A stretch of 64,000 nucleotides of DNA, from the NCBI GenBank assembly GCA_964368985.1, contig CAYJDW010000006.1, forward strand, positions 247 through 64,246, given 5' to 3'. Made by a program: the position numbers and the translations under genes. How positions within the stretch are numbered: position 1 is the first letter of the stretch; each line of letters starts with the position of its first letter. Shown here piece by piece: positions 10,308-57,471 of this stretch. The notes under the pieces are model-generated. The model ran no database searches. It was given only the letters and a program-made list of their open reading frames with translations, and was not told where the DNA came from. Source of the stretch: an uncultured Myxococcales bacterium. Its GTDB lineage: Bacteria; Myxococcota; UBA727; JABDBI01.

Positions 10308-11067
10308 GATGGCCTCCTGGGCTGGGACGAATGGTTTTTTGTTCGATCCATTTTTGATAATGTTCGCCTTTATAAACATGCTGAACATAGGCGCCTGATA
10401 AATGCACGCGATCCGGTTCCAACTCTCCTAAAGGCACCACATGTTCTACTTCTGCCAAGGTAATAGCGGCAGCAGTAGCCATGATCGGATTAAAGTTGCG
10501 GGCGGTCTTATTAAAAATAAGATTGCCAAAAGAGTCCGCGGTATGAGCCTTGATGAGCGCAAAATCAGCTTTGAGCGATTCCTCCAGTACATAATCTTTG
10601 CCCCCAAAACGCCGTATTTCTTTAGGTTTGGAACTTTTCACGACGCGGCCCTGACTGTCGTGCAGCATCGGTAGACCGCCATCGGAGACCAGGGTATGTA
10701 CCCCGGTCGGCGTAAAAAAAGCAGGAATCCCCGCGCCGCCTGCTCTAATTTTCTCGGCAAGTGTCCCTTGAGGAATAAGTTCAACCTCAAGTTCACCCGT
10801 TAAAAATTGGCGCTCGAAAATTTTATTTTCACCCACATAGCTTGCGATCATTTTCTTGATTCGCCGCTCTTTTAGTAAAACCCCCAAACCCAAATCCGTG
10901 GTTCCACAATTATTGCTAATGATGGTCAAATCCTTGACGCCCGATTCAAAAAGCGCGCCAATAAGATATTCGGGGTTGCCGCACAGCCCGAAACCGCCCA
11001 CCATAATAGTGGCGCCATCTTTCAGCTGCTCAAGCGCTTGCGCTAAGTTGCTAATAATTTTGTTCAT
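10300..11067 (-). CDS. scoA: 3-oxoacid CoA-transferase subunit A
   Basis: '[33 protein letters not shown]…' is typical of the alpha subunit. It sits in tandem with subunit B. Confidence 0.8.
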
Positions 11068-29181: not shown

Positions 29182-29210
29182 AAGTCGTCTTTAGAGAACT
29201 TTAAAAATCA

Positions 29211-29345
29211 CCGCAACAACTCCTCGCCCGCTTGCGGGAGAGGCTAGGGAAAGGGTGGAGACGCTGTTAGGATAGCAAAATGCGATGCCTTTTCGTAGCC
29301 CCACTCTCACCCCGAGCCCTCTCCCGTAAGCGGTCGAGGGAGTGG
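29211..29345. repeat. MITE/REP-like palindromic element, copy 1 (internal palindrome ctcctcgcccgcttgcgggagaggctaggg … ccctctcccgtaagcggtcgagggag)
   Basis: It shares a 40-50-bp core with the copies at 42613..42718 and 57194..57410, and lies between convergent 3' ends. Confidence 0.65.
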
Positions 29346-29401
29346 TATCGCTAAATCATTTTAGACAGGATTTTGCGAGCTAAATTTTGTTCAAAGAAAG
29401 C

Positions 29402-42602: not shown

Positions 42603-42612
42603 GGTAAATGGA

Positions 42613-42718
42613 TTGTTGCATAACCGACGGCCTGTTTTGTCTCAACAACTCCTCTCCCGCAAGCGAGAGAGGGAGCGTGGTGATTGGCTTTAGCCTCAAA
42701 ATCTATATGCAATAACGC
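42613..42718. repeat. MITE/REP-like element, copy 2 (short form; ends ttgttgcataa … tatgcaataa)
   Basis: It shares the tctcaacaactcctc…gggagcgtg core and TIR-like ends with copy 3, and lies between convergent 3' ends. Confidence 0.6.
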
Positions 42719-42753
42719 TTTTTCAGAGGAGTTTGGTAAGGCTATCCTGGCGA

Positions 42754-45429
42754 TTATTTTCGAAGCCTCTCAAACCGAGCTTTCCGCCACACCCGAATAA
42801 TAAAAATAAATAAACTTAAAATACCCAAGAGCCCCGGATTAGTTGTGCTACATCCGAGCTCCTCGAGCTCTTCCTCGGGCTCACTTGCCTCCAAACTAAA
42901 ATCACAATTGGATCGGTCAACAGTACCATCCATTTCAAAGCTAACTTGCAGGTTATCTAGTATATATTTAAAGTCATAACTTACCAAAGAGAGATATATT
43001 ATTTTTTGCTCGCAACGTTCAAAATCGAGCGACATTGAGGCTGTCCAATAACCCTTATCAAAAACAGCTTTGGCGCTTTCTTCGCTAATACTCTCGTTGT
43101 TTCGATAAGGCAGCGAGTGAGCTTTTTTAAATTTCCAAACGATGGGTTGATCAAGGCTTGAAATCACGCCCAAGGGAATAATATTGGCGGTGGAATCGGG
43201 GGTGCTTTCGGTGCCTAAGAGAGCTCCCGTGCCTCCAAGAAATTGTTTCCACGACAGGGTCATCTTTTTGGCGCCAGCGGGAATGGCTATTTCGAGTTGG
43301 GAGCTGGATGGCGCATAGTTTTTTAAGCCGATTTGATTTTTCGATGGAATGAACATCATCTTTTTAGTTCGCGTCTTTAGGTGGTTCGAATCATCGACAC
43401 TCGAGAGGATATAGGCGCGAAAACAATCCTTCACTCCTCGACTTTCGAGGACTTGTTCAGCCATTTTTGCGACTGCCTCGCCTAAAGATGGACGGGCTTT
43501 TATCGTTTCGATAAGTTTTTGGCTTTGGGTTTTAAAATCTTCACTGACGCTAGCCTTTGAAAGCGCGGCTAAAACAGCGCGATCAAACTCAATAGCCCCC
43601 GGCATTCCTTGTGCTTCTTTAATTTTCTTGCGAATAGCCCACAGCGCCCCTGACCATACTTGAGAATCATTGTGAATTTCGCCGACGATATTGTCCGGAC
43701 AGCTCGCCTGGTTTTCGATGTTTCGCAAGCTCGCTTCACCCTCGCCCCCTCTAATGGCGGCATATTCACCAATATTGGAATCGTTGGTGAAGGCTGCGGC
43801 GAAATAATCGGACCAGCCTTCATTGAGGCTGCCTGGCTCAGAGTGAATGCCCCATTCATCGAGGCCGAGAGAATTTAGCTTATTCACAAGGGACGTGGTG
43901 ATGGCATGCATGAACTCATGGAAGACCACGTCGCCATCATAGGCAAAATCGCGGTCGCCTTGGAAAAAGACGTTGTGGTCCCAACTTTTAATTAAATCTG
44001 ACAATATTTCATCGGCTCGGGGAGTAGTGCTTTTTAGTTGGCTCAAGGCTGGCACGAAGGCGGCATTGCCCATGCGGCTAAAAGTATTGAGAACGATGGG
44101 TTTTTCCCTTGAACCTTTGCCAGCCAAGATTTGAACAATAAAGTTCTCAGGGTCAGATTGGCTGCTTCCCATTTTCATATCGGGAATAAGTTGGTTTACG
44201 AAAACTCGATAAGGATTGACTGGCTTTCCATTCTCAAGCTTCGGACTGCCATCTTTTTCGCAGGTCATCGCCGATGCTCTGAGGCACCACGTTTGGTCTT
44301 CGAGAAGAGAGCGAATATAGTTAAAAAAAGACATCATGGAAAAATAGACTTGGATTTCGCTGAAGCGGTCGATTTCCGAAGCAGGGCCGGGCTCGTCGAG
44401 AGGCTTGTCAAAAAAGCCCACCGCTTGTCCATTATTGGCTTTTAGACTGGCTTTGGCAAAGGGCAGATAGGTGCAGCGCACGGTATCGACGCTAATGGTG
44501 GGGGGCAAGGTCATCAGAGGGTCGAGGCCTAAAGAATCAGTGGGGAGCTGAACCGTTTCGCGGGTTTGTCGTGCGCCTTCGTGGCTTTCTAAGGCACAGC
44601 GCTTGTTGGAATCAGTACAGGGTCCTTCTTTGGGGCACGTATAAAACTTACAGCAGGTGCGGACTTGTAAATATTCACCTTCTAGAAAACCGTTGTCTTT
44701 GACATCGACAAGATTTTTAAGGACGACATCTTTTAAATCCTCGCTGCTTGCGCGAGAGGGGGAGGGTGAATAGACGAAAACTTGAGCTAAGGCTTGATCA
44801 AAAAAAGCGCTCTGCTCAACCTTTAAAATTTCTCCTGTTTCCGCGTCTACATAAACATCTTTAAGATCGAAGATCGATAAAGTGGGTAATCGGGTTTTAT
44901 AAACAGGCCTGAGTTCGCCAAAATGCATTAGATATACAGGCTCAAAACTGCCTTCTATTTTTTCCACGAAGGGATTTTTGATCAGTGAACTAGTTTGGAT
45001 CGCCATTGCACGTTCAAGACTTTCCGCACCGCTGAGGACAAAATGCCCATCGGGAAGTTTGAAGTGAATATATTCAAAAGTGTCGAGCTGGGAACCTTTG
45101 CTATATATAGCGTCTGCGCCCTCAACTACGATGCCGTTATAGAGTGGCGTAAGTCTTTGGACTTCTTGCCCCGCAATGGTGGTTGTTTGCGTCAAAAAAT
45201 CCAATTGGGACTCTTTGGTGTTGGCAAATGAAGAAGAGAAAAGTAGAGCTTTATGAAATTGCTTGAGCTTCGGTGGAGAGGGACTTTTAATAGCAAAGTT
45301 ATATTGTTGACCAGATTTTGCATCGTGAAGCTTGATGCTAATTTCGGACCAGGAAGAGAAGCAAAACAATAACGAGAAAATGATTGAAAAATACTTCATG
45401 GTCAGTAGTCCTTTTTGAGGATTATACAC
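42754..45429 (-). CDS. Secreted zinc metalloprotease (gluzincin; HExxH…NEGWSDY) with a C-terminal Cys-containing sorting-signal-like tail
   Basis: A signal peptide is present. 'VVFHEFMHAI' is the HExxH motif and 'NEGWSDYFAA' is the downstream Glu ligand, as in M4/M36 peptidases. The C-terminus 'GCSTTNPGLLGILSLFIFIIRVWRKARFERLRK' has a Cys, a hydrophobic helix and a basic cluster. Confidence 0.65.
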   Translation of the reverse strand: MYNPQKGLLTMKYFSIIFSLLFCFSSWSEISIKLHDAKSGQQYNFAIKSPSPPKLKQFHKALLFSSSFANTKESQLDFLTQTTTIAGQEVQRLTPLYNGIVVEGADAIYSKGSQLDTFEYIHFKLPDGHFVLSGAESLERAMAIQTSSLIKNPFVEKIEGSFEPVYLMHFGELRPVYKTRLPTLSIFDLKDVYVDAETGEILKVEQSAFFDQALAQVFVYSPSPSRASSEDLKDVVLKNLVDVKDNGFLEGEYLQVRTCCKFYTCPKEGPCTDSNKRCALESHEGARQTRETVQLPTDSLGLDPLMTLPPTISVDTVRCTYLPFAKASLKANNGQAVGFFDKPLDEPGPASEIDRFSEIQVYFSMMSFFNYIRSLLEDQTWCLRASAMTCEKDGSPKLENGKPVNPYRVFVNQLIPDMKMGSSQSDPENFIVQILAGKGSREKPIVLNTFSRMGNAAFVPALSQLKSTTPRADEILSDLIKSWDHNVFFQGDRDFAYDGDVVFHEFMHAITTSLVNKLNSLGLDEWGIHSEPGSLNEGWSDYFAAAFTNDSNIGEYAAIRGGEGEASLRNIENQASCPDNIVGEIHNDSQVWSGALWAIRKKIKEAQGMPGAIEFDRAVLAALSKASVSEDFKTQSQKLIETIKARPSLGEAVAKMAEQVLESRGVKDCFRAYILSSVDDSNHLKTRTKKMMFIPSKNQIGLKNYAPSSSQLEIAIPAGAKKMTLSWKQFLGGTGALLGTESTPDSTANIIPLGVISSLDQPIVWKFKKAHSLPYRNNESISEESAKAVFDKGYWTASMSLDFERCEQKIIYLSLVSYDFKYILDNLQVSFEMDGTVDRSNCDFSLEASEPEEELEELGCSTTNPGLLGILSLFIFIIRVWRKARFERLRK

Positions 45430-47177: not shown

Positions 47178-48162
47178 GAACCCCTCTTAGAAGCAGGAAA
47201 AAAAATACCGGCGATAATATCAGAGCGGTCAAGGCTCCAACCGGAATTTCGGTTTGCCAGCAGGCAAAGCTTAGACGGCTCAGGGTATCAAAAAAAACTA
47301 AAATAATAGCCCCTAAAAAGCTTGCGGCAGGTAAGACAAATCTTAGGTCGGGAAATATTATCAAACGCACAAAATGTGGAATCACCAGCCCCAAAAAACC
47401 AATCATGCCGGCAAAAGCTACGACGTTGCCGATCAATAAGCAGTTAGCGATGATGGCGAGCTTTACGGTGGCATGAGCATTAATGCCCAGTATGGTGGTC
47501 TCAGTGCTGCCAAACGATAAAATTTCGAGCTCTCCGCGGAGGTGAATTAATATGGCCAAACCAAGCAGCCAGGCGGGAATAATAAACCATAATTGCGAGC
47601 TTTCCACGGCGCTAATATGGCCCACTAACCAATAAAGAAGGCTTTGGGTTTTGGTGGGGGGCAGAATAGTTTTAAGCAAGGTTATTAAGGCTGCGGCCAG
47701 AGAATTGATCAGGACGCCCACAAGGAGGCAATGGCTCAAACTTTGTTTAGGTGATTTGGTTAAATAGAAAAAAATAAAAAGGAAAGCGGTTAGCCCCCCG
47801 AGGATGGCGCCAATGCTTGGGGCAAGCCAGATATTGGTGGACCAAAAGCTAATGACTAAAGCTGCACCTAAGGCCGCGCCGCCGCTTATGCCGAACAAAT
47901 GCGGGTCGGCCAATGGATTGCGAAAAATAGCTTGTAAAGAAGCCCCGCTCGCGGCCAAAGAAGAGCCGGCAATGATGGCCAACAAGGTTCGACAGCTTCT
48001 ATAATTAAAAACCGCTGCATGCTGAAGGCGATCAGTGAGGACAGCGGTAGACCACCCCAAAGGGCCCGTGATCATGGACACTAAGATGGCAAAAACGAGA
48101 AGCACACCCAAAAGGGTGAGAATTCTGCGGTTGAGCTGAGGAGTCATGACATAGTGGGGCAT
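47167..48162 (-). CDS. ABC transporter permease (FecCD/BtuC family)
   Basis: A ~10-TM protein typical of the FecCD permease family. Confidence 0.8.
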   Translation of the reverse strand: MPHYVMTPQLNRRILTLLGVLLVFAILVSMITGPLGWSTAVLTDRLQHAAVFNYRSCRTLLAIIAGSSLAASGASLQAIFRNPLADPHLFGISGGAALGAALVISFWSTNIWLAPSIGAILGGLTAFLFIFFYLTKSPKQSLSHCLLVGVLINSLAAALITLLKTILPPTKTQSLLYWLVGHISAVESSQLWFIIPAWLLGLAILIHLRGELEILSFGSTETTILGINAHATVKLAIIANCLLIGNVVAFAGMIGFLGLVIPHFVRLIIFPDLRFVLPAASFLGAIILVFFDTLSRLSFACWQTEIPVGALTALILSPVFFFLLLRGVHED

Positions 48163-48164
48163 AA

Positions 48165-49019
48165 TTAGACGCCGGTCGACAACAAGTTGGAAAAATACCC
48201 AATATCTTCGATAAGGGCCGGAGATGGCGAAAAAAATAAGGGGCGCTTGGGCACTATCAAAGTCGGGCCAAAATTAAAGAGGTTAAGCCCTAGACTTTGT
48301 AAGAGTCGTTCATAGGCTTTCAAATTTTCTTGTCCTTCAAGCAGGACCATTACATGAGGTGGCGCGGTCAACAAGTTTTCCAAGGGCCAAATCGGCCAGG
48401 CCGTATGCGGGTTTGTACCGAGATTAGCAAAACCCATGGCCTCGACTATTTCTGCAATAAAGGTTTTCGCTCCCGCCACAACCAAGGGTGAATGAGCGAT
48501 AGCCAAGAGAATAGTGGGGCGGTTTTGGCCTGGGGCCCATGTTTGGGCTTTAGCATCGCTAAGGGCTCGATCGAGGCGCTCATTTAAAAGCTGGCCTTTC
48601 TTTTTGACACCAAGTTTTTCACCGAGCTTTTCATTGATAAAACGAATGTCGCTGAGGGAATCGGGTTGATGGGCAAATATTTCTATGCCGTTTTCCTTGA
48701 GGCGACGAAGTTTGTCGGCGGCGAAAACATGGGGAACGGCCAGCACCAAATCAGGCTTGAGACTTAAAATAATTTCAAAGTTGGCGTCGGCAAAAGTGCC
48801 GATGCGCGTGACGTTTTTTACTGCATCGAGGTCGCAGTGGTTTGTGATCCCCGCTAGGCGATGGGCTTGTCCGAGGGCCACGACCGTCTCGCAATAGGAG
48901 GGCGCCATGGCGATAATGCGTTGATAGGAAGAATTTTTAGGTGCGACGGGGGAAGAGCCAGCAAAATAAAACCCGGCTGCGATAAAAAACGCTACAAAAA
49001 GAGCCAAACCAAGTTTCAC
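48165..49019 (-). CDS. Periplasmic substrate-binding protein (BtuF/FhuD/TroA-like class III)
   Basis: '…IIAMAPSYCETVVALG…LKPDLVLAV' is the class-III signature. A GTG start at 49019 overlaps the upstream stop as GTGA; an ATG at 49082 is the alternative. Confidence 0.7.
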   Translation of the reverse strand: MKLGLALFVAFFIAAGFYFAGSSPVAPKNSSYQRIIAMAPSYCETVVALGQAHRLAGITNHCDLDAVKNVTRIGTFADANFEIILSLKPDLVLAVPHVFAADKLRRLKENGIEIFAHQPDSLSDIRFINEKLGEKLGVKKKGQLLNERLDRALSDAKAQTWAPGQNRPTILLAIAHSPLVVAGAKTFIAEIVEAMGFANLGTNPHTAWPIWPLENLLTAPPHVMVLLEGQENLKAYERLLQSLGLNLFNFGPTLIVPKRPLFFSPSPALIEDIGYFSNLLSTGV

Positions 49020-50578
49020 GGGCCAAATATCTCCAAAAGATCGAGCGGAACTATTTTTTCCTGGCCCCCTATGACGGCCCACGCGCCAAAGCCAGGTTGA
49101 TAGTCTTTGGCATAGTCTTTAAAGCGAAAAATAAGTTGCTCAGGACTAGGCATGAGGCGCTTATCCTGGTCGCCATTGAGCATGAGTGGCTCAATAAAGG
49201 GAAAGGGGAAATAACCTTCATTAAGGCTATAGACCACAAGACTGCCATCACTGGACGCGAGAAAGACCAAATCGTCATGCCATAGTGATGCTAGAGTAAA
49301 ACTGAAAGGGCGATGAAAGGGGTGGGGCTTTATGTCATTATCGGTGAATGCGGTAGCATTCTCCTCGAGAACGGCTATTTTATTGCCATAGGCCAAAGGC
49401 ACCACGAGTTTAGAGCCCACTAAAGCGGGCTGGCCCGGACTAAAGTCGACCAGGGCTATCGGATTGCTAAGACTCAAGCTTGTTTTATCCGCGGAAAGAG
49501 TAAGTTTTACGAGACCAGCGTCGTCGCTGGTGATGGGATTTGTATTTGTATCACGATAAGCTCCTGCACAACTAACCCATATTTCAGTTTCATTCTTCAC
49601 CATAAAATAGCGAGGATTTTTAAAAGGGAGCTCAACAATTGCTTCGCTACGAATCTTATTATTTTCGATCTTGAGCAAGGCCACTATTCCTTTTCCCACC
49701 ACCGCCAAATCATTCTTAGTGTGATCGGCGAACTGATAATAGTTAGCAAAGCTTGCTAAATAAGTGGTGTCGTCGAGAGCAATTATTTGCTCAGGACTAT
49801 GAGCAAAAGATTTACTAATGCTCGTGCTAGATTCCGAAGTACCGTCGACACTCAGTGGTATTTTTACCGTGAGGGCCGGGTTATTTTCAAAGAGATAGAG
49901 ATTGCCTGTCTTATCTTTGAGGCGGCTTTTATCCGCAATACTTCCTTGGCTTAGATTTAATAAAGCGAGTTCACCACTCCCAGAAAAGGGCACAAGTGCA
50001 TGATTGCCTTTAGATGCGACCATGCGAGGAAAAAGGTTTGCAGTGGCGTTTGGATTTAAGCCAATGGTTGAACTAGCTTTTTTCTTCAGGCGTCCCGTCT
50101 CGTCGACATTATGAAGACTAATGAGCATTGCATTGCTCGATAAAATCGCGGCACTAGAGCCGTTTAACGCCACATAGCTGAGCTCATTGTCGGTACTAAA
50201 AGGCTTTTTAGCGACATTGGCGATTGCCTCTGGCAGATTCTTTATCTGATAGGTTTCAGAATAATGCTTGGAATCCACGCTAAAGGTGAGATCGCCGACA
50301 CTCGCACTTTCTTGAAGGGTCAACTCAACATCAAATCTTCCTTCTGCGTCCGAGATGGTATTTTCCTTCTTGTTATTATGGCTTCCCACCTCGACAAAGA
50401 CCGGAGTATTAGGCGGTGTTGCTCCCCGAAAACCGCGAGCGCGGACGCCGCGTGAAGTTTTTGCCATTACGATCAGCTGGTGCTTGATGGGACCTGTAGG
50501 CAATATCTTGAACTTAGGTTCATCCTTGCAGGATGCAAGCAGGAGAAGGGCGGTGAGCGCGATTATTGATTTCTTCAT
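49016..50578 (-). CDS. Lipoprotein (LLLASC), a probable surface accessory protein of the TonB-dependent receptor
   Basis: The lipobox is present. An N-terminal CarbopepD_reg-like 'GATPPNTPVFVEV…DAEGRFDVEL' segment is followed by a beta-rich domain. The start overlaps the receptor stop by 1 nt. Confidence 0.55.
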   Translation of the reverse strand: MKKSIIALTALLLLASCKDEPKFKILPTGPIKHQLIVMAKTSRGVRARGFRGATPPNTPVFVEVGSHNNKKENTISDAEGRFDVELTLQESASVGDLTFSVDSKHYSETYQIKNLPEAIANVAKKPFSTDNELSYVALNGSSAAILSSNAMLISLHNVDETGRLKKKASSTIGLNPNATANLFPRMVASKGNHALVPFSGSGELALLNLSQGSIADKSRLKDKTGNLYLFENNPALTVKIPLSVDGTSESSTSISKSFAHSPEQIIALDDTTYLASFANYYQFADHTKNDLAVVGKGIVALLKIENNKIRSEAIVELPFKNPRYFMVKNETEIWVSCAGAYRDTNTNPITSDDAGLVKLTLSADKTSLSLSNPIALVDFSPGQPALVGSKLVVPLAYGNKIAVLEENATAFTDNDIKPHPFHRPFSFTLASLWHDDLVFLASSDGSLVVYSLNEGYFPFPFIEPLMLNGDQDKRLMPSPEQLIFRFKDYAKDYQPGFGAWAVIGGQEKIVPLDLLEIFGP

Positions 50579-52401
50579 TACAAATTCTCCAATTCAACTT
50601 GTCCAAAAAAGATGGTGCCGGGGAGCGGCATTTCGTAAATATCTCGCGCAGTCTTGTGATTAAAAACGTTGCTGATGGAGAGCGAAGTAGTGAGTCTTTT
50701 ATAGACGCGCGCCGAGAAAATCGCGTCGACGAGAGCATAAGCCTTGGTCTTAAGAGTGCCGTTAAGATTGGCTGAAGTTGGCCCGCGATAGCGGCCAAGC
50801 AAGCTCATGCTTAAGAAATCTTCGGTCCCAAAACGTAATTTGCTGAAACCAAGGAAGGGCGGCGCCTGAGGTAATGGTGCTTTGCTGGCTTTTACTCGCG
50901 TGTATAAAATTGAGTTATTGCTTTCAAACATCAACCATTCACGGGGTTCATAGCTAAAATTTACATCGATGCCATAGCGTCTGGCCGTGTGAGCATTGAT
51001 GGGTTGTTGCTTAGTGCCGAGCAAGGGAACATAGACGATCACGTCGCTGAGCCACCCCAAAAAACCGGAGACATGGATTTGAGCGAGGGGGCTTATTCTG
51101 TAATTAGTACTCAGTTCAATATCCCACACGCTTTCTTTTTGCAGGTCCGGATTGCCGACGAAGAAACGATTGTTAGCGTGCAATTCCATGAACGTGGGAA
51201 GGCGTTGAGCGCGAACAATGCGGGTGGTGACACTCATGCGATCGCTCGGCTCAATGGTTATGCCTAGGTCTTTCTTAAATACCAAACCATAAGTCTGATA
51301 CCCGATCATGCTGAAATTACTAAATACTGTGGGCTTCATACGACCATTTAGGCGGCTAACGCGTTTCATGAAAAACCCAGCACCGATGCGGGTTTGATCA
51401 ATTTCATAGGCTCTTTCAATCACGATTTGTTGAGCCAAATCGAATTCCGCCATGGATTTAAACCATTTTAGCGGTCTAATACCGAGCTTAATCTCATGCG
51501 TTGTGCTCATGAATTGTTCGTCATTGGTGGGAATGTCGGTCGTGGAATAATTAAACAAACTATTGGCCACATTGGTATAAAATTCCGCCCGATCCAGTTT
51601 TTTAGCAGCTCCTACTGATAGGCCAGAATAGACCGAATGGCTTCGCAAATGGGGGGTGGGAGAGGATTGAAAACCGGCGATTCCACCTTCGTGGGTGTTT
51701 AAGGCAACTAATGCGTGTCCGCTGCCGGTGGGGGATTTTCTTTGATAGTTCACCAAAGCTTGAAGGCGATGCTGATCATTATTGTCGCGATAATAATTAT
51801 TGTTTGGATCTTTTTTATCTAGATGGGGGGAGGAATAGGCAAAATTGCCTTCGGTGGAAGAAACTTGCAAGGCCACCAACATGCTCGAATAATCGTCGAG
51901 CGGCGCCCCCGCACTTGCGCCCGCTTTGAGGCTTGATTGGGTGCCTATGCCGAAAACACCCTTGGCATAGGGCGCGGTAAAATGGGGTAAGCTAATGTGA
52001 AGGCCTTCCGCATTGGTTTGCATGCGGCTGGCGGCGAAGAGAAACATGGCATTGGCATCGCTAAAGCCGTTCACGGGATTATTAAGATTGAGTCCCTCTA
52101 AATCTACTCTGAGACGTCCATCGGACAAGCCTCGATAGCGAAGTTCAGAGCGCCCCAGAGGTCCATTTCTCTCCGTCAGCGTCAGTCCTGGAATATGAAA
52201 AAGCATCGCGGAATCGCTGAGTTTTTGATGGGAGCTTTGGTCGGTAGTATAGCTAAAGCTAGAAGCATGGGGAGGCTCGATTTCCCCCTCGACCACGGTT
52301 TGATTTTCTTGCAACTCAAGTTCAGTCGTAGGTTTTTCGGTATCGCTAAATGCCTGCGGGGCCAAAATAAAAAGCGCCAACCAACTATTTTTCAATGACA
52401 T
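50578..52401 (-). CDS. TonB-dependent outer-membrane receptor
   Basis: A signal peptide and a plug domain ('…GLTLTERNGPLGRSELRYRGL') are present, followed by a 22-strand barrel. The start is chosen at MSLKNSW. Confidence 0.8.
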   Translation of the reverse strand: MSLKNSWLALFILAPQAFSDTEKPTTELELQENQTVVEGEIEPPHASSFSYTTDQSSHQKLSDSAMLFHIPGLTLTERNGPLGRSELRYRGLSDGRLRVDLEGLNLNNPVNGFSDANAMFLFAASRMQTNAEGLHISLPHFTAPYAKGVFGIGTQSSLKAGASAGAPLDDYSSMLVALQVSSTEGNFAYSSPHLDKKDPNNNYYRDNNDQHRLQALVNYQRKSPTGSGHALVALNTHEGGIAGFQSSPTPHLRSHSVYSGLSVGAAKKLDRAEFYTNVANSLFNYSTTDIPTNDEQFMSTTHEIKLGIRPLKWFKSMAEFDLAQQIVIERAYEIDQTRIGAGFFMKRVSRLNGRMKPTVFSNFSMIGYQTYGLVFKKDLGITIEPSDRMSVTTRIVRAQRLPTFMELHANNRFFVGNPDLQKESVWDIELSTNYRISPLAQIHVSGFLGWLSDVIVYVPLLGTKQQPINAHTARRYGIDVNFSYEPREWLMFESNNSILYTRVKASKAPLPQAPPFLGFSKLRFGTEDFLSMSLLGRYRGPTSANLNGTLKTKAYALVDAIFSARVYKRLTTSLSISNVFNHKTARDIYEMPLPGTIFFGQVELENL

Positions 52402-52626
52402 TATGCACCTAGTGACCAGATTAACCAATGGATTGCGACGGGAAAGGCAAGCAAATGAATTCATCAGCGAGAGCTAGCAATCGGATTTTGATAATTCAAA
52501 TGGCGTTGTTGCATAAATATTAAAAACACTTTGCTGGCCCCACTACTTCAGCCTCCCTTTAGGATTATTATTTAACGAATAATGGGTTCAATGACATTCC
52601 TGTTCATGGATGTGCTAGGAGATCGA

Positions 52627-54681
52627 ATGAAGAAATTATCAAGGCTAGGATTTTTGCTGCTGCTCGGCTCATCGGCTGGGTTTTTAGGCTGCAGAAGTAT
52701 TGAAACTAAAACAGTGAAAGGTATGAGTGCTATGGAAGGAATTAATCGCTTGCCGACGGATTTGAGCGGCAATAATATTTTGGCTCGATGCATCGAGCAT
52801 ATCGAAGCTGCTGACATTGTTAAAAAACAATTGGTCAAAAACTCTAGCAGTGCTCCATTTTTGAATACCCTTCAGGCCTACAACGATATTTTGATTCATC
52901 TCGATGCAGCTTTAAGTCAGGCATCTTTGTTGAGCCAAGTTCACCCCGACGAGAAAATTAGAAAAGATGCTGAAACCTGCGAGCAAAAAGCCTCCAGTTT
53001 TGCCACTGATTTATCGCTTGATCGTGAATTATTTGAAGCCATTAAGCTCGGCCAGACGGCGAGCCTAGATGCTGAGGCTAAACGCTTATTCGATCGTACC
53101 CTGCGTGATTTTAAACGCTCCGGCGTCGATAAAGATGAGCCGACGCGGCAAAAAATTAAGCTCCTCAGAGAAGAGTTGGTGACTATTGGTCAGCAGTTTG
53201 GTCAAAATATTCGCGACGAACGTTTTGTCATCAAGCTTGATAGCGCGAAAGACCTCGCAGGTATGCCAAGTGATTATATCGATGCGCATAAGCCTGGGGC
53301 CGATGGCAAAATCGAGATCTCGACGGATTATCCTGACTATATTCCATTTATGAAATATGCCCAAAGCAATAAACATCGCCAAGAACTTCGTTTTAAATAT
53401 CTGAATCGTGGCCATAAAAACGGTCCCATTCTTCAATCGATGATCGAAAAAAGACATGAGCTGGCCCGTATTCTTGGCTATAATTCTTATGCCGATTATG
53501 TAGCTGAAGATAAGATGATTAAGGAATCTAAATCGATTCATAGTTTCATCGATAAAATATCAAAAATAGCGAAGGCGGGTGCTGATAAAGAATATGAAGC
53601 TTTGCTAAAATTTAAACAAAAAACCGATAAATCTGCAAAGAGCATTGAAGGCTATGAAAGTGGTTATCTTGAAGAAGCTTTTAAGAAAGAACAATTTAAG
53701 TTTGATTCTCAAGAAGCTCGCTCTTATTTTTCCTATGACAAAGTTCGCAGTGGTTTATTGGCAGTAACCGGTAAATTATTTGGGCTTCGTTATGAGCGCG
53801 TTCAAGATACGAAAGTTTGGCATCCATCGGTAGAAAGCTATGATGTCTTCGACGAAAATGGAAAGCTTGGTCGTATCTATTTGGATATGCATCCACGCGA
53901 TGGGAAATATAAACATGCAGCGCAGTTCACGGTTGTGAGTGGACTAAAAGATCGTCAATATCCCGAAGGGGCACTGGTTTGTAATTTTCCTGAGCCCAAA
54001 GAGGGCGATAAAACGGCTCTAATGGAACATCGCGAAGTGGTTACGATGTTTCACGAGTTCGGGCACCTGCTTCATCATACTTTCGCGGGCAAGCAAAAGT
54101 GGATGCCATTTTCAGGTGTTGCGACGGAATGGGATTTTGTAGAGGCTCCTTCTCAGTTATTGGAAGAATGGGCTTGGTCGCCAGAAGTATTGGCCATGTT
54201 TGCCACCAACCAAAAAAACGAGCCAATTCCTGCCGAATTGGTCAAAAAAATGCGTGCTGCGGATGAGTTTGGTAAGGCCATTGCTGCTCGTCAGCAGATG
54301 TTTTATGCGGCCTTAAGTGCTGATTATTACGATAAAGATCCAAAGTCTTTTGACTTATTAGGCCACCTCAAAGAATTGCAAGCGCAATATTCTTATTTCC
54401 CCTACGAAGAAGGTACCCACTTTCACTACAGTTTCGGCCACCTCGAGGGCTATTCGGCTTTGTACTACACTTACATGTGGTCATTAAGCATTGCCAAAGA
54501 TTTACTCGAGCCCTTTAAACAGGAAGGCCTGATGAATCCGAGCGTCGCCAAACGTTATCGCGATATTGTCCTAAAACAGGGCGGCTCGAAGGATGCCAAG
54601 GATTTAGTACAAGAATTTTTAGGACGTCCCTTCAAGTTTGATGCCTTTGAAAAATGGCTAAAAACCGTTCCCGTGACCTGA
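52627..54681 (+). CDS. M3-family zinc oligopeptidase (Dcp/OpdA-like), lipoprotein
   Basis: Lipobox 'SSAGFLGC' and zinc-binding motif 'MFHEFGHLLHH'. Confidence 0.8.
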   Translation: MKKLSRLGFLLLLGSSAGFLGCRSIETKTVKGMSAMEGINRLPTDLSGNNILARCIEHIEAADIVKKQLVKNSSSAPFLNTLQAYNDILIHLDAALSQASLLSQVHPDEKIRKDAETCEQKASSFATDLSLDRELFEAIKLGQTASLDAEAKRLFDRTLRDFKRSGVDKDEPTRQKIKLLREELVTIGQQFGQNIRDERFVIKLDSAKDLAGMPSDYIDAHKPGADGKIEISTDYPDYIPFMKYAQSNKHRQELRFKYLNRGHKNGPILQSMIEKRHELARILGYNSYADYVAEDKMIKESKSIHSFIDKISKIAKAGADKEYEALLKFKQKTDKSAKSIEGYESGYLEEAFKKEQFKFDSQEARSYFSYDKVRSGLLAVTGKLFGLRYERVQDTKVWHPSVESYDVFDENGKLGRIYLDMHPRDGKYKHAAQFTVVSGLKDRQYPEGALVCNFPEPKEGDKTALMEHREVVTMFHEFGHLLHHTFAGKQKWMPFSGVATEWDFVEAPSQLLEEWAWSPEVLAMFATNQKNEPIPAELVKKMRAADEFGKAIAARQQMFYAALSADYYDKDPKSFDLLGHLKELQAQYSYFPYEEGTHFHYSFGHLEGYSALYYTYMWSLSIAKDLLEPFKQEGLMNPSVAKRYRDIVLKQGGSKDAKDLVQEFLGRPFKFDAFEKWLKTVPVT

Positions 54682-54699
54682 TTATGAGGAATGCTCGGG

Positions 54700-55380
54700 C
54701 TAATCCTTGCTAAGTTTCTTTTTGAGATCGCTCAGTTCATCTTCAAGGCTGGGAGTATTCGTACTCTCAGTTTTTTTTGGCTCATCTTCAATGTTCTTAT
54801 TTTGTTCCATATAGGCCATAAGTTCAGTAAGAGCCGCCACTTCTGCTTCATTAGTATCGATTTTTTCTTCCATTCGATCAAAATTATCAAATAAACGGGT
54901 GTCATTTACGTGATCGGGGCTTTCGGCAGGGGGAATAAGGGTCGTATTTCGGATACGCAGGCTTGCTTCGGGGCTCCTTTTTAAACGACGAATTTTGTCA
55001 TCTAAAGCTTTTAAGCCTCGATTTATCGTATCGATAGATTGTTGTTCTTCTTTGATGAGATGGGCTAATTCTTCATATCTATTTTCCAATATCTGCCGAT
55101 CTTTTATTAGTGATTCATCGCTTAATTTATCCTTATTTATTAGTGAATTTTCTGCTTTGCTAGATAGTTCTATTATTTGATTTTTAAGTGTTTGTTGTTT
55201 TTTTTGCGCGAGCTTAAGTGAAGCCATGGCGGATAATAAAAGTCGATGGGCTTTATGTTTGCTGGCTTCAACATCGATAATTTTTTGGGCCCGCAATTTT
55301 TTGGGATCCTCAGCCTTATCGAGCCAATCGTTAAGGTTTGAACGTACGAGATCGTTGAATTTTTTTATTATGCCCATTTT
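54700..55380 (-). CDS. pspA: PspA/IM30 family protein
   Basis: 'MGIIKKFNDLVRSNLNDWLDKAEDPKKL' followed by a long coiled coil. Confidence 0.8.
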   Translation of the reverse strand, partial: KMGIIKKFNDLVRSNLNDWLDKAEDPKKLRAQKIIDVEASKHKAHRLLLSAMASLKLAQKKQQTLKNQIIELSSKAENSLINKDKLSDESLIKDRQILENRYEELAHLIKEEQQSIDTINRGLKALDDKIRRLKRSPEASLRIRNTTLIPPAESPDHVNDTRLFDNFDRMEEKIDTNEAEVAALTELMAYMEQNKNIEDEPKKTESTNTPSLEDELSDLKKKLSKD

Positions 55381-55496
55381 GTCACCCATTGCCACCCCTC
55401 AGCCAAAAATGGCCGGGGCACTTGTTCAAACAGGAAATTATGATAAAGCCTTAAAGCCTTTTGCCTATTAACTAATCATACGGGAAAGAAACCAAC

Positions 55497-55919
55497 ATGG
55501 ATACCTATCGCGTCGGGTCCAACATTGATTCGTGGTGCACCAAGTGTAAGCTTGTGCTCGCTCATACCATTGAGGCTCTTGCCCAAGGGTCTATTAAAAG
55601 GGTGCAATGTAATACTTGCCGGGGTAAGCATCAATTTAAAGACAGCGAACCCAAATTAGCCACTAAAAAATCTTCACCAGCAACCAAGAGTGATAAGGCT
55701 CCAAAAGCCCGTTCAAAGGCTGGGGATTTTAGCAAACTGGTGCGCAATCGCTCTATCGAGGTAGCACTTCCTTACAGCGTTAAGAAGCATTTTGCGCGAG
55801 GCGATCTCATCAACCATGTGCAGTTTGGCATGGGTGTTGTGGTAGACCAAAAAGATGTGCAAAAGATTGAAGTATTGTTTGAGACGGGACCTAAAATCTT
55901 GATTCACGCTCGAACATAA
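55497..55919 (+). CDS. Hypothetical zinc-ribbon protein (140 aa)
   Basis: CxxC…CxxC ('WCTKCKL…CNTCRG'). Confidence 0.45.
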   Translation: MDTYRVGSNIDSWCTKCKLVLAHTIEALAQGSIKRVQCNTCRGKHQFKDSEPKLATKKSSPATKSDKAPKARSKAGDFSKLVRNRSIEVALPYSVKKHFARGDLINHVQFGMGVVVDQKDVQKIEVLFETGPKILIHART

Positions 55920-55925
55920 AAAACC

Positions 55926-55956
55926 TAAAGCATAAAGCTTTAGGAATTTTTGCCTA
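55926..55956 (+). terminator. Rho-independent terminator
   Basis: cctaaagc-ataa-agctttagg followed by aattttt. Confidence 0.55.
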
Positions 55957-56267
55957 CCTATAAGGCCACGCGCTTACTTTTTAAGTTCGACAAATTTTTG
56001 CGGTTGGTTGAAGTGCGCTTGGCATCCGGTTGAGATAAATACAAAGGCGGCGAGAAGTGCTGCTGGTAGAATCCAAAAACCGCTTTTCATATGTGTCCCC
56101 ATTCAAAGTTTTTGATCGCAATCGAAACTATTTAATTACTTCGATGGGATCTTGCACGTCGTTGATCTAGTTTAACGCGCTAAAAATGATCAAAAAAAAG
56201 GAGAAAGTCGAGGTACGACTTTCTCCCTAGGGTTAGTAGATCTAACCACTGCGGCGATCAAAACTTT

Positions 56268-56981
56268 TTATGTACCACCTTCGTCGTCACTGAAGTCCCC
56301 ACCAGCACCAGCGCCATCGCCGTTATCATCATCGAAGTGGAATTCGAAGAGGTCAGTACCTTCTTCGCATTCATTGATCAAACCACGGCGTGGTCCGATG
56401 ACTGGAGCAACGGGAGGAAGGAGTTGTGGACCGATAGGACCTTGAGGACCTGCTACGAGAGGTTCACCTAGAGCTACGAAGTTATAAGGATCTTGCATGA
56501 GTGGATCGATCCAGCAATCTTTGATGCTGGTAGCGAAGAAGGCAGTGCGATTCCAACCATGTTGATCATCTTGATCGTAGGCGCGCGTTTTAAGGAAGGC
56601 CACATCTTCAGGTACCAAGATACCGTTAGGATAAATGGTCAGAGCGCGACTGTTATCAATTTCTTCCAAAGGTGGTCCGAATTCGGAGCATTCTGGATGG
56701 ATGTGGCAGTCATTATCACCGCAGTCAGTCAAACCATCGCCATCGTCATCCACGCCGTTACCGCACGCGGTTTCGACCGACAGAATCGGCAGATAACCAC
56801 CGGTGAACACTGGATAGCCCGGAGCCCCCAAAATAGCTAAATCCGAGGCTGATCCGTTTTCTACTGGTTTGTAACTTGCATCTTCGGTTGAATTTGACTG
56901 ATTGCCGCAGTTGTTCAACGCAATAAAACTGGCAGAAAATAACGCAAGCATTGCGTACTTGCTCATTATGCTTGTTTTCAT
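56268..56981 (-). CDS. Secreted protein with a Cys-rich Asp/Gly motif (CGNGVDDDGDGLTDCGDNDC) and an acidic C-terminus
   Basis: A signal peptide is present. The CxDxDGDGxxDC motif is of the putative metal-binding type common in Myxococcota-like genomes. The tail is Pro/Gly-rich. Confidence 0.5.
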   Translation of the reverse strand: MKTSIMSKYAMLALFSASFIALNNCGNQSNSTEDASYKPVENGSASDLAILGAPGYPVFTGGYLPILSVETACGNGVDDDGDGLTDCGDNDCHIHPECSEFGPPLEEIDNSRALTIYPNGILVPEDVAFLKTRAYDQDDQHGWNRTAFFATSIKDCWIDPLMQDPYNFVALGEPLVAGPQGPIGPQLLPPVAPVIGPRRGLINECEEGTDLFEFHFDDDNGDGAGAGGDFSDDEGGT

Positions 56982-57193
56982 CTTACCCCCCTAGGTAACG
57001 CGCGAATAATCTTTTTGCTGTGCTGAGCGCGCGCACTTCAGCATCGGGGGGATTTAATAAATGACCTCTTCCTTTGCACGTGAAAGTGATCTTTCATGGA
57101 TCAATAATTTTTTGTGGTTGAATAATAGCGAGGTGAATTTGGGTGACAGTGTGAGGGGATGTAGGTGTTGGGCTTTGTCATCTTCGGGGTTGA

Positions 57194-57410
57194 CCGGCGT
57201 TGTTGCGTAAATGGGGGCTATTTTATCTCAACAACTCCTCGCCCGCTTGCGGGAGAGGCTAGGGAGAGGGTGGAGAGACATAAACGTGAAAGTCATTACA
57301 AGAAATCCTTCGTTTTTGTTTCTCCACCCTCTCCCCCAGCCCTCTCCCGCAAGCGGGCGAGGGAGCGTGCAGGGCCTTAGCCTCCAAATTTATTTATGCA
57401 ACAACGCCGG
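57194..57410. repeat. MITE/REP-like element, copy 3 (full length, ~217 bp), with terminal inverted repeats ccggcgttgttgcgtaaat / atttatgcaacaacgccgg and an internal long palindrome
   Basis: The TIRs are exact reverse complements. The internal sequence ctcctcgcccgcttgcgggagaggctagggagagggtggagag…ctccaccctctcccccagccctctcccgcaagcgggcgagggag is palindromic. Confidence 0.7.
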
Positions 57411-57471
57411 GTTGACCCGAGGATGATAATTTAGGATCAGATGAAACTTAAGTGGATTTAGGGATTATAAG

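Follow-up and report, generated by a model that had tools for sequence, protein, structure and literature searches.

MITEAba12 of Acinetobacter is a miniature inverted-repeat transposable element (MITE) of 113 bp that lacks a long palindromic core. It is mobilised by ISAba12 and related insertion sequences (ISs) of the IS5 family, and it is reported to favour AT-rich targets with no recognisable sequence pattern (PMC6382973). QMITE2 of Coxiella burnetii is about 190 bp long and carries terminal inverted repeats (TIRs), variable direct repeats of 7-11 nt and a palindromic core that resembles repetitive extragenic palindromic (REP) sequences, with a hairpin of -113 kcal/mol. Full-size copies occur together with small TIR-less or truncated versions, mainly in 3′ untranslated regions and intergenic positions. 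The REP of QMITE2 is described as GTAG-tagged and as a target of IS1111, and look-alikes of its core are found in Alphaproteobacteria (PMC5896051; PMC10969869). IS903 prefers the target WTTYA-N9-TRAAW, whose flanks are symmetric about a 9-bp duplication (PMC2577343 Table 1). Here we describe a repeat family in a 64,000-nucleotide stretch of DNA from an uncultured Myxococcales bacterium (contig CAYJDW010000006.1), hereafter the window, of which the best-preserved copy lies at 57196-57408. We conclude, with a probability of about 0.85, that this element is a MITE, a non-autonomous DNA transposon, moved in trans by a DDE transposase of the IS903 group within the IS5 family.

Structure of the full-length element

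A first-pass annotation, made from the sequence letters, had reported a MITE-like palindromic element of 217 bp at 57194-57410 with exact 19-bp TIRs. The stretch and its long internal palindrome are present as described. Inverted repeats are also present, but they are not exact, since 18 of the 19 positions match (gcGtaaat versus gcAtaaat). The outer cc/gg is part of a 9-bp direct repeat, GGGTTGACC. Without it the element spans 57196-57408, or 213 bp, and its TIRs, GGCGTTGTTGCGTAAAT and GGCGTTGTTGCATAAAT, are 17 bp long and match at 16 of 17 positions. The perfect 9-bp repeat is the target-site duplication for which the first-pass annotation had proposed a search. The features of this copy, named copy 3, are as follows.

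57196-57408, plus strand: full-length MITE copy 3, bounded by TIRs and forming one long hairpin; profile match (nhmmer) E=7e-72
57196-57212, plus strand: left TIR GGCGTTGTTGCGTAAAT, one mismatch to the family consensus; 15 of 17 positions as in the inverted repeat (IR) of IS903
57392-57408, minus strand: right TIR, reading inwards GGCGTTGTTGCATAAAT; same as the ends of the ISs in loci L129 and L136
57187-57195: left 9-bp target-site duplication GGGTTGACC, 9 of 9 positions the same as 57409-57417
57409-57417: right 9-bp target-site duplication GGGTTGACC, read from the sequence
57237-57362: GC-rich REP-like palindromic core, composed of 22-nt units, arms and an AT-rich tip

The two hairpin units of the core (57237-57258 and 57341-57362, 22 nt each) are 100% complementary, and the long internal palindrome has its arms at 57237-57284 and 57315-57362. 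The core arms of 40 nt have a G+C content of 70-75% and the tip of 46 nt one of 33%, against 44.5% for the window. Alignments of the copies give a common layout for the family: a TIR of 17-18 nt, about 20 nt of subterminal sequence and the invariant CAACAACTCC are followed by the 22-nt hairpin unit, the arm CTAGGGAGAGGGTGGAGA and the AT-rich tip, after which arm and hairpin unit recur as mirror images. On the far side come GAGGGAGCG and, about 30 nt further, the second TIR.

RNA folding of copy 3 with its flanks, which had also been proposed, gave a very stable single hairpin (-153.8 kcal/mol, z = -14.6); the DNA fold of the element has -77.9 kcal/mol (z = -13.5). The element is non-coding: a 71-aa open reading frame (ORF) inside the 213 bp had no protein homologue among the 5.8 billion sequences searched. 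Its size falls in the range of MITEs (about 50-600 bp, non-coding), and every testable feature of a MITE was found, which supports the original reading. With the gathering thresholds of Rfam, the window gave only a tRNA and no match to the element; with E-value thresholds, there were only sub-threshold look-alikes of miRNA-precursor hairpins, which are meaningless.

Assignment to the IS903 group

The agreement of the TIR with the IS903 IR was checked on an annotated copy of IS903B from E. coli (L114, 1101-2157). In its consensus form, the TIR matches the left IR of ISAba10 at 17 of 18 positions and the right IR of ISNov2 at 16 of 17, and both of these ISs generate 9-bp duplications (PMC6382973 Table 2). 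The two characters, TIR sequence and duplication length, are independent of each other, and both indicate the IS903 group.

Viral and prophage contigs were then scanned for the exact 17-mer TIR. Two Burkholderiaceae ISs, of 1134 and 1131 bp (L129 and L136), are bounded by exactly the TIR of the window element and are flanked by the 9-bp duplications CTGGCGATC and CCGAGTACC, respectively. The ORF of the L129 IS (331 aa) encodes an IS5-family transposase, with a score of 352 bits for NF033579 (cut-off 140) and the domains PF13737 and PF01609. Over its full length, this protein shares 42% identity with the IS903B transposase. The L129 IS itself is 99.7% identical to an IS in Paraburkholderia, and its relatives in Burkholderia, Cupriavidus and Ralstonia are annotated as IS5 or IS1420.

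The same 17-nt TIR was also seen on an 802-bp deletion derivative (L130, 982-1783) and on an unrelated 138-bp MITE (L134, 819-956; the same locus in L135, L137, L141 and L142), all from high-GC genomes in IMG/VR. Therefore, this class of TIR has produced MITEs more than once.

No IS5/IS903-like transposase was detected in the window and the related loci fetched when they were searched by tblastn with the L129 and IS903B transposases; the search space was 300,342 bases, including the E. coli control locus L114 and much overlap. The statement of the first-pass annotation that no transposase is associated with the element therefore stands, and the element is non-autonomous as far as visible. Judging from the family, an IS903-group transposase would bind the 17-18-bp TIRs (consensus GGCGTTGTTGCATAAATA), cut the element out or copy it, and join it to a 9-bp staggered cut. 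The outcome of such joining would be a 9-bp duplication, as is seen at copy 3.

Copies in and beside the window

About 75 kb of the genome of this organism is readable, and it holds at least seven copies or remnants of the family. Besides copy 3, the following were found.

29184-29360, plus strand: copy 1, a long-form core with decayed ends; nhmmer E=9e-33
42610-42718, plus strand: copy 2, a short form whose TIRs are diverged and which has one 22-nt hairpin, CCTCTCCCGCAAGCGAGAGAGG, not the long palindrome
63963-64000, plus strand: copy 4, left end only, since the end of the window cuts the element
52502-52560, minus strand: truncated copy with a perfect 18-nt TIR, GGCGTTGTTGCATAAATA (52502-52519), and about 40 nt of weak likeness to the right end
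44735-44790: possible single-arm core fragment, cctcgctgcttgcgcgagagggggagggtgaatagac, within the ORF 42754-45429; nhmmer match 44735-44825, E=3e-5, weak
L155, 8692-8907, just left of the window: copy 0, full length
L155, 10099 to the end, just left of the window: copy -1, full length to the contig end

All other copies that had been reported in the window were recovered, by reading of the sequence and by the nhmmer profile built from full copies (matches at 57188-57416, 29208-29348, 42610-42723 and 63957-64000). At least two further full copies lie just beyond the left edge of the window (L155). With up to 3 mismatches allowed, the TIR motif GGCGTTGTTGCATAAAT was counted four times in the window where 0.34 would be expected, and none of 100 shuffles reached four. 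The 22-nt core hairpin CCTCKCCCGCWWGCGGGMGAGG occurs five times, against 0.00 expected. The 17-nt TIR is perfect or has one mismatch in copies 3, 0 and -1 and in the truncated copy, and is diverged in copies 1, 2 and 4 and in a copy from another organism (L113, below).

Some details of the previous description need correction. Copy 1 is present where it was placed (29211-29345), but it lacks an intact TIR and retains just a decayed one on the left, GTCGTCTTTAGAGAAC, at 29184-29199 and at the expected spacing. The sequence described as a solo TIR at 52501-52519 is a perfect 18-mer (52502-52519), and past the TIR it keeps weak similarity to the right end of the element, with a score reached by 4 of 1000 shuffles. 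The copies had all been placed at gene 3′ ends or in convergent spacers. This holds for four copies, which lie 8-277 nt downstream of stop codons, but not for the truncated copy, which is in the divergent promoter spacer that separates the genes for a TonB-dependent receptor and an oligopeptidase A. A lack of further copies and of conserved TIRs had been named as the outcome that would speak against the MITE. Instead, copies occur beyond the window and in L113, and the TIRs are conserved.

The related full copy in L113, a metagenome contig of 45.5% G+C, belongs to a different organism; L113 was the one locus found in a metagenome scan with a 30-nt core pattern. A scan of viral contigs with a left-junction pattern gave no match, and among the matches listed for the pattern CAACAACTCCTCKCCCGC in genome contigs there were chance matches only, mostly in Nocardia.

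Several short-read contigs terminate at or within long-form copies, as is expected for a multi-copy repeat. The ENA scaffold L154 stops inside copy 0, and the window's own contig seems to stop at about the same place. Long copies thus break short-read assemblies, apparently including the contig of the window. Copies 0 and -1 are nearly identical and inverted, and they flank a polyprenyl synthetase gene (L155, 8692-10232) in an arrangement like that of a composite transposon. The ORF 42754-45429 (minus strand), which hosts the core-arm-like cctcgctgcttgcgcgagagggggagggtgaatagac, encodes an 891-aa protein with a Peptidase_M36 domain; the arm-like sequence may be an old in-gene remnant or a chance match.

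Placement of the element in hairpin loops of family B

A second, MITE-like repeat family, termed family B, has the form GTCAT-stem-CTTGA-stem ... stem-TCAAG-stem-ATGAC with a spacer of roughly 20-100 nt. Two of its places in the window are given here.

57175-57429: host hairpin of family B split by copy 3, with halves 57175-57195 and 57409-57429 and stems TCATCTTCGGG and CCCGAGGATGA
1507-1583: unoccupied family B element, two inverted hairpins with CTTGA and TCAAG loops

Unoccupied B hairpins are also present in L155, and further family B places are L155 10033-10098, L105 1480-1605, L123 about 870-1050 and L127 about 10740-10860. In the relatives, family B occupies intergenic positions at which the window carries the MITE. 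The sequences of the core, the TIR and family B were without match in a full-text search of the literature.

At the copy-3 site, the window contains a degenerate B element, and the MITE splits the right hairpin of that element. When the MITE and one duplicate are removed, TCATCTTCGGGGTTGACCCGAGGATGA results, in which the GGGTTGACC site is centred exactly, by its middle base, on the dyad. The relative L105 has a family B element with a right hairpin homologous to this reconstructed target. There, the copy-3 site is occupied by a family B element only, GTCATTCCGGG-CTTGA-CCCGGAAT ... ATTCCGGG-TCAAG-CCCGGAATGAC, and the single-copy equivalent of the duplication, GGTCAAGCC (opposite strand), is found in the same place. 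In L127, the site is a short spacer with no repeat. None of the relatives L105, L123, L126 and L127 (79-85% GreA identity) has a family copy at the sites orthologous to copies 3 and 4, and no family copy was detected anywhere in the approximately 35 kb sampled from these four.

The B hairpin loops hold copies 3, 0 and -1, and each time TTCG and GG-N5-CC precede the TIR in the same register. Since these are all three of the intact copies and the B loops are few and short, this placement is not due to chance. Insertion of the three intact copies was strongly targeted to B hairpin loops. Their target sites are all centred on a hairpin dyad. Compared with the preferred target of IS903, the flanks of copy 0 (TTTCG-N9-CGAAA) agree at 4 of 5 positions on each side, those of copy 3 (CTTCG-N9-CGAGG) at 3 of 5 and 2 of 5, and the one available flank of copy -1 (CTTCG) at 3 of 5. 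The transposase may read the symmetric stem flanks, which would fit the WTTYA-N9-TRAAW preference. As for a target duplication at the L113 copy, its two flanks, ATTTCGGC and ATTTCCGC, match each other at 7 of 8 positions. Targeting of hairpin loops as strict as that of the three intact copies offers a clean natural case of an IS903-type transposase choosing symmetric targets.

Long and short forms

No insertion or deletion over 47472-64000 separates the window from strains that share 99.7-99.8% identity with it. Copy 1 was found in all strains, with two short contigs stopping just past the flanking gene, and copies 1, 2 and 3 have the same length across all strains examined. Copy 4 is a long form in L106 and is exactly 106 bp shorter, inside the core, in L108, L109 and L110; in L111 the contig stops inside the element, and the short-form junction is present. 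The short allele is a perfect hairpin, CCTCGCCCGC-AA-GCGGGCGAGG. In the long allele, the 106 bp sit between CCTCGCCCGC and AAGCGGG. The edges of this block are CCCGC direct repeats, which lie within the 10-nt repeats CCTCGCCCGC and CCTCTCCCGC.

Copies 0, -1 and 4, and in part copy 3, have homologous tips, and every copy that is well preserved is long; therefore, the long form of about 213 bp is ancestral to the family. The short forms of about 109 bp most likely arose by slipped-strand deletion. The slippage may take place between direct repeats of 10 nt, CCTCKCCCGC, at the foot of the palindrome, as suggested by the CCCGC-bounded 106-bp polymorphism among the strains. The nearly precise excision of Tn10 is a comparable process. 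The polymorphism of the core length, together with the presence or absence of copies, provides usable strain markers.

The palindromic core as cargo

The hairpin with the arm of the GGGAGAGGG / GGGTGAGGG type is not specific to the family. Matches of about 40 nt to the core were found on plasmids or chromids of Mitsuaria (11 places), Variovorax, Cupriavidus, Methylobacterium, Pantoea and Enterobacter. Eight viral contigs also have core matches, seven of them at 62-70% G+C. Within 400 nt of the core matches in the viral contigs, no IS903-type TIR was observed. The cargo of the MITE is therefore a widespread REP-like palindrome, and it is the pairing with these TIRs that defines the family. The cargo would fold a transcript or single-stranded DNA into a very stable hairpin.

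Alternative explanations and possible function

Several observations weigh against a MITE of the IS903 type. No cognate transposase was found within the approximately 75 kb of this genome that was read. The interior has no likeness to the ISs found, with which only the TIRs and a few subterminal bases are shared; therefore, the element is not a simple internal-deletion derivative. In this species a clean duplication is present at one copy only, and copies 2 and 4 are without a recognisable one. At copy 0 the flanks form a perfect inverted repeat of 14 nt, TTTCGGGCTTGACC and GGTCAAGCCCGAAA, and no direct repeat. These flanks may have arisen if both hairpins of one B element were hit and the two MITEs then recombined, so that of the left hairpin only the left half and of the right hairpin only the right half would remain. 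Alternatively, a template switch may have perfected the long quasi-palindrome. Finally, the direction of the change between long and short forms, deletion or insertion, is inferred. On this last point, the long form could instead be a nested composite: the primary MITE would be the short TIR-bearing form with its 22-nt hairpin, and a REP-like palindrome of about 106 bp would have been inserted in the hairpin loop, as by IS1111-type or other hairpin-targeting elements. The difference between L106 and L108 is indeed one exact 106-bp block in the loop of a perfect hairpin, CCTCGCCCGC^AAGCGGGCGAGG, and the hairpin motif stands alone in many other bacteria. However, CCCGC repeats within 10-nt repeats that match at 9 of 10 positions are the classic mark of slippage deletion across a palindrome, and it would be a strange coincidence for the ends of an inserting element to mimic the target hairpin exactly. 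Moreover, homology of the long-form tips connects copies 0, -1 and 4 and in part copy 3, no well-preserved copy is short, and the copy from another organism, L113, is long. We regard the nested composite as clearly unlikely.

Two other views are less likely still. A REP-associated tyrosine transposase (RAYT) could have spread the repeats as REP elements or REP doublets (REPINs), and the resemblance of their ends to IS903 would then be coincidental. The short GC-rich imperfect palindromes of the core, arranged as inverted doublets with a variable spacer, and the several copies without duplications would suit this view, which is nevertheless very improbable. No GTAG (CTAC) or CGTC tag is present at the foot of the palindrome in copies 3, 0 and 4, and tblastn with E. 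coli RayT gave no match below E=3 in the window and related loci, a weak test with one distant query on a partial genome. HUH transposition of the RAYT type yields no duplications, whereas copy 3 has one of 9 bp, and the TIRs are identical over 17 nt to those of autonomous IS5-family ISs. The other view takes the palindromes for host-selected structural signals, such as terminators or RNA-stabilising 3′ hairpins, which are fixed in place and immobile. It would account for the very stable fold, for the four copies downstream of genes and for the fixation of copies across strains. Still, it is very improbable, because the orthologous sites in relatives lack the elements, the element has TIRs, a target duplication and ends identical to IS ends, and of the remnants one is found in a promoter spacer and a second, possible one within an ORF. 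A canonical intrinsic terminator is ruled out, since no T-run follows the stem in any copy. The IS903-type MITE therefore has our preference. Mobility and exaptation are not mutually exclusive, and one may conjecture that the element contributes to RNA 3′-end stabilisation or to transcription attenuation.

Host lineage and neighbouring observations

Proteins with 100% identity to those of the window were found on one NCBI contig only, and metagenome contigs, among them a JGI contig of 703 kb and an ENA scaffold of 119.7 kb, carry proteins with more than 90% identity; an exact look-up of the hutF-like protein gave no match. Beyond the near-identical strains, the next relatives of the window proteins have 75-85% identity, and the named matches are Myxococcota metagenome-assembled genomes (MAGs) only. 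On these grounds, C. burnetii was rejected as the host. The present element adds one well-documented MITE family to a poorly studied bacterial lineage, with its transposase family assigned from sequence alone.

Three further observations were made at neighbouring loci. Downstream of greA, at 63687-63885 of the window, there is a conserved non-coding block with the motifs AAGTGAATCACTT, GTTGGGGGGCATTCCCAAA and ATTGTAACGATGAAG..ATGTRGGCAG, which are retained in the relatives with 79-85% GreA identity. RNAalifold predicted 38 pairs in the block, 4 of them with compensatory changes, and Rfam gave no match at gathering thresholds. The block may be a small RNA or a leader, on either strand.

At 32449-32597, eight copies of a GGC-rich 12-nt tandem repeat lie within the gene 32197-32610, whose product has an RRM_1 domain. 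Therefore, the repeats encode the RGG (glycine-arginine-rich) tail of an RNA-binding protein.

In L126 (81% GreA identity), the hutF-like amidohydrolase gene that sits between bamA and the gene for a 238-aa acidic-repeat protein is absent, and a 650-bp non-coding spacer is present instead (5152-5806).

Comparison with known systems

The element shares with MITEAba12 the sequence class of the TIR (GGCTTTGTTGCATAAA versus GGCGTTGTTGCATAAA here, 15 of 16 positions) and the 9-bp duplications. Both are non-autonomous, with a likeness to candidate parent ISs that is limited to the TIRs, and in both only a fraction of the copies keeps the duplications (40% in MITEAba12). Unlike MITEAba12, the element described here has 213 bp with a REP-like palindrome of 70-75% GC and aims at the hairpin loops of family B, and its host is an uncultured lineage for which Myxococcota MAGs are the nearest relatives with a name.

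IS903-group ISs (IS903B, ISAba10, ISNov2, the Paraburkholderia IS of L129 and IS1420-like elements) have the same kind of terminal repeats, the 9-bp duplication and targets with symmetric flanks. In contrast to them, the element has no transposase gene and an unrelated interior. Like REPs, bacterial interspersed mosaic elements (BIMEs) and REPINs, its core is a short GC-rich imperfect palindrome that forms an inverted doublet with a less conserved spacer in extragenic positions, and the hairpin type is common to many Proteobacteria. Unlike them, it has IS-type TIRs and a target duplication and carries no GTAG or CGTC tag, and no RAYT gene was found.

With QMITE2, compared by description and not by sequence, the element has in common the architecture, the location, the existence of long and short versions and core look-alikes in other Proteobacteria. 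The differences are that copy 3 is without GTAG/CTAC, that no IS1111-like element is present in any of the loci, and that the hosts are unrelated; a distant blastn search of a plasmid collection gave no Coxiella record among the matches. The element is accordingly filed as a MITE of the IS5/IS903 type, and not as a member of QMITE2 or MITEAba12. A bolder view, which we consider rather unlikely, is that this element and QMITE2 form one cross-phylum class: GC-rich REP-like palindromes between IS903-type ends, spread by IS5-family transposases and not by RAYTs. The palindromes would in this case have passed horizontally from high-GC Proteobacteria into a lineage of 45% GC, and they would home to the loops of other hairpin repeats because the transposase reads the symmetric stem flanks. 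If the TIRs of QMITE2 were of the GGCNTTGTTGC type, this would indicate homology and an IS903-type origin of QMITE2. Such homology would also identify the class of the mobilising enzyme, which the authors of QMITE2 left open.

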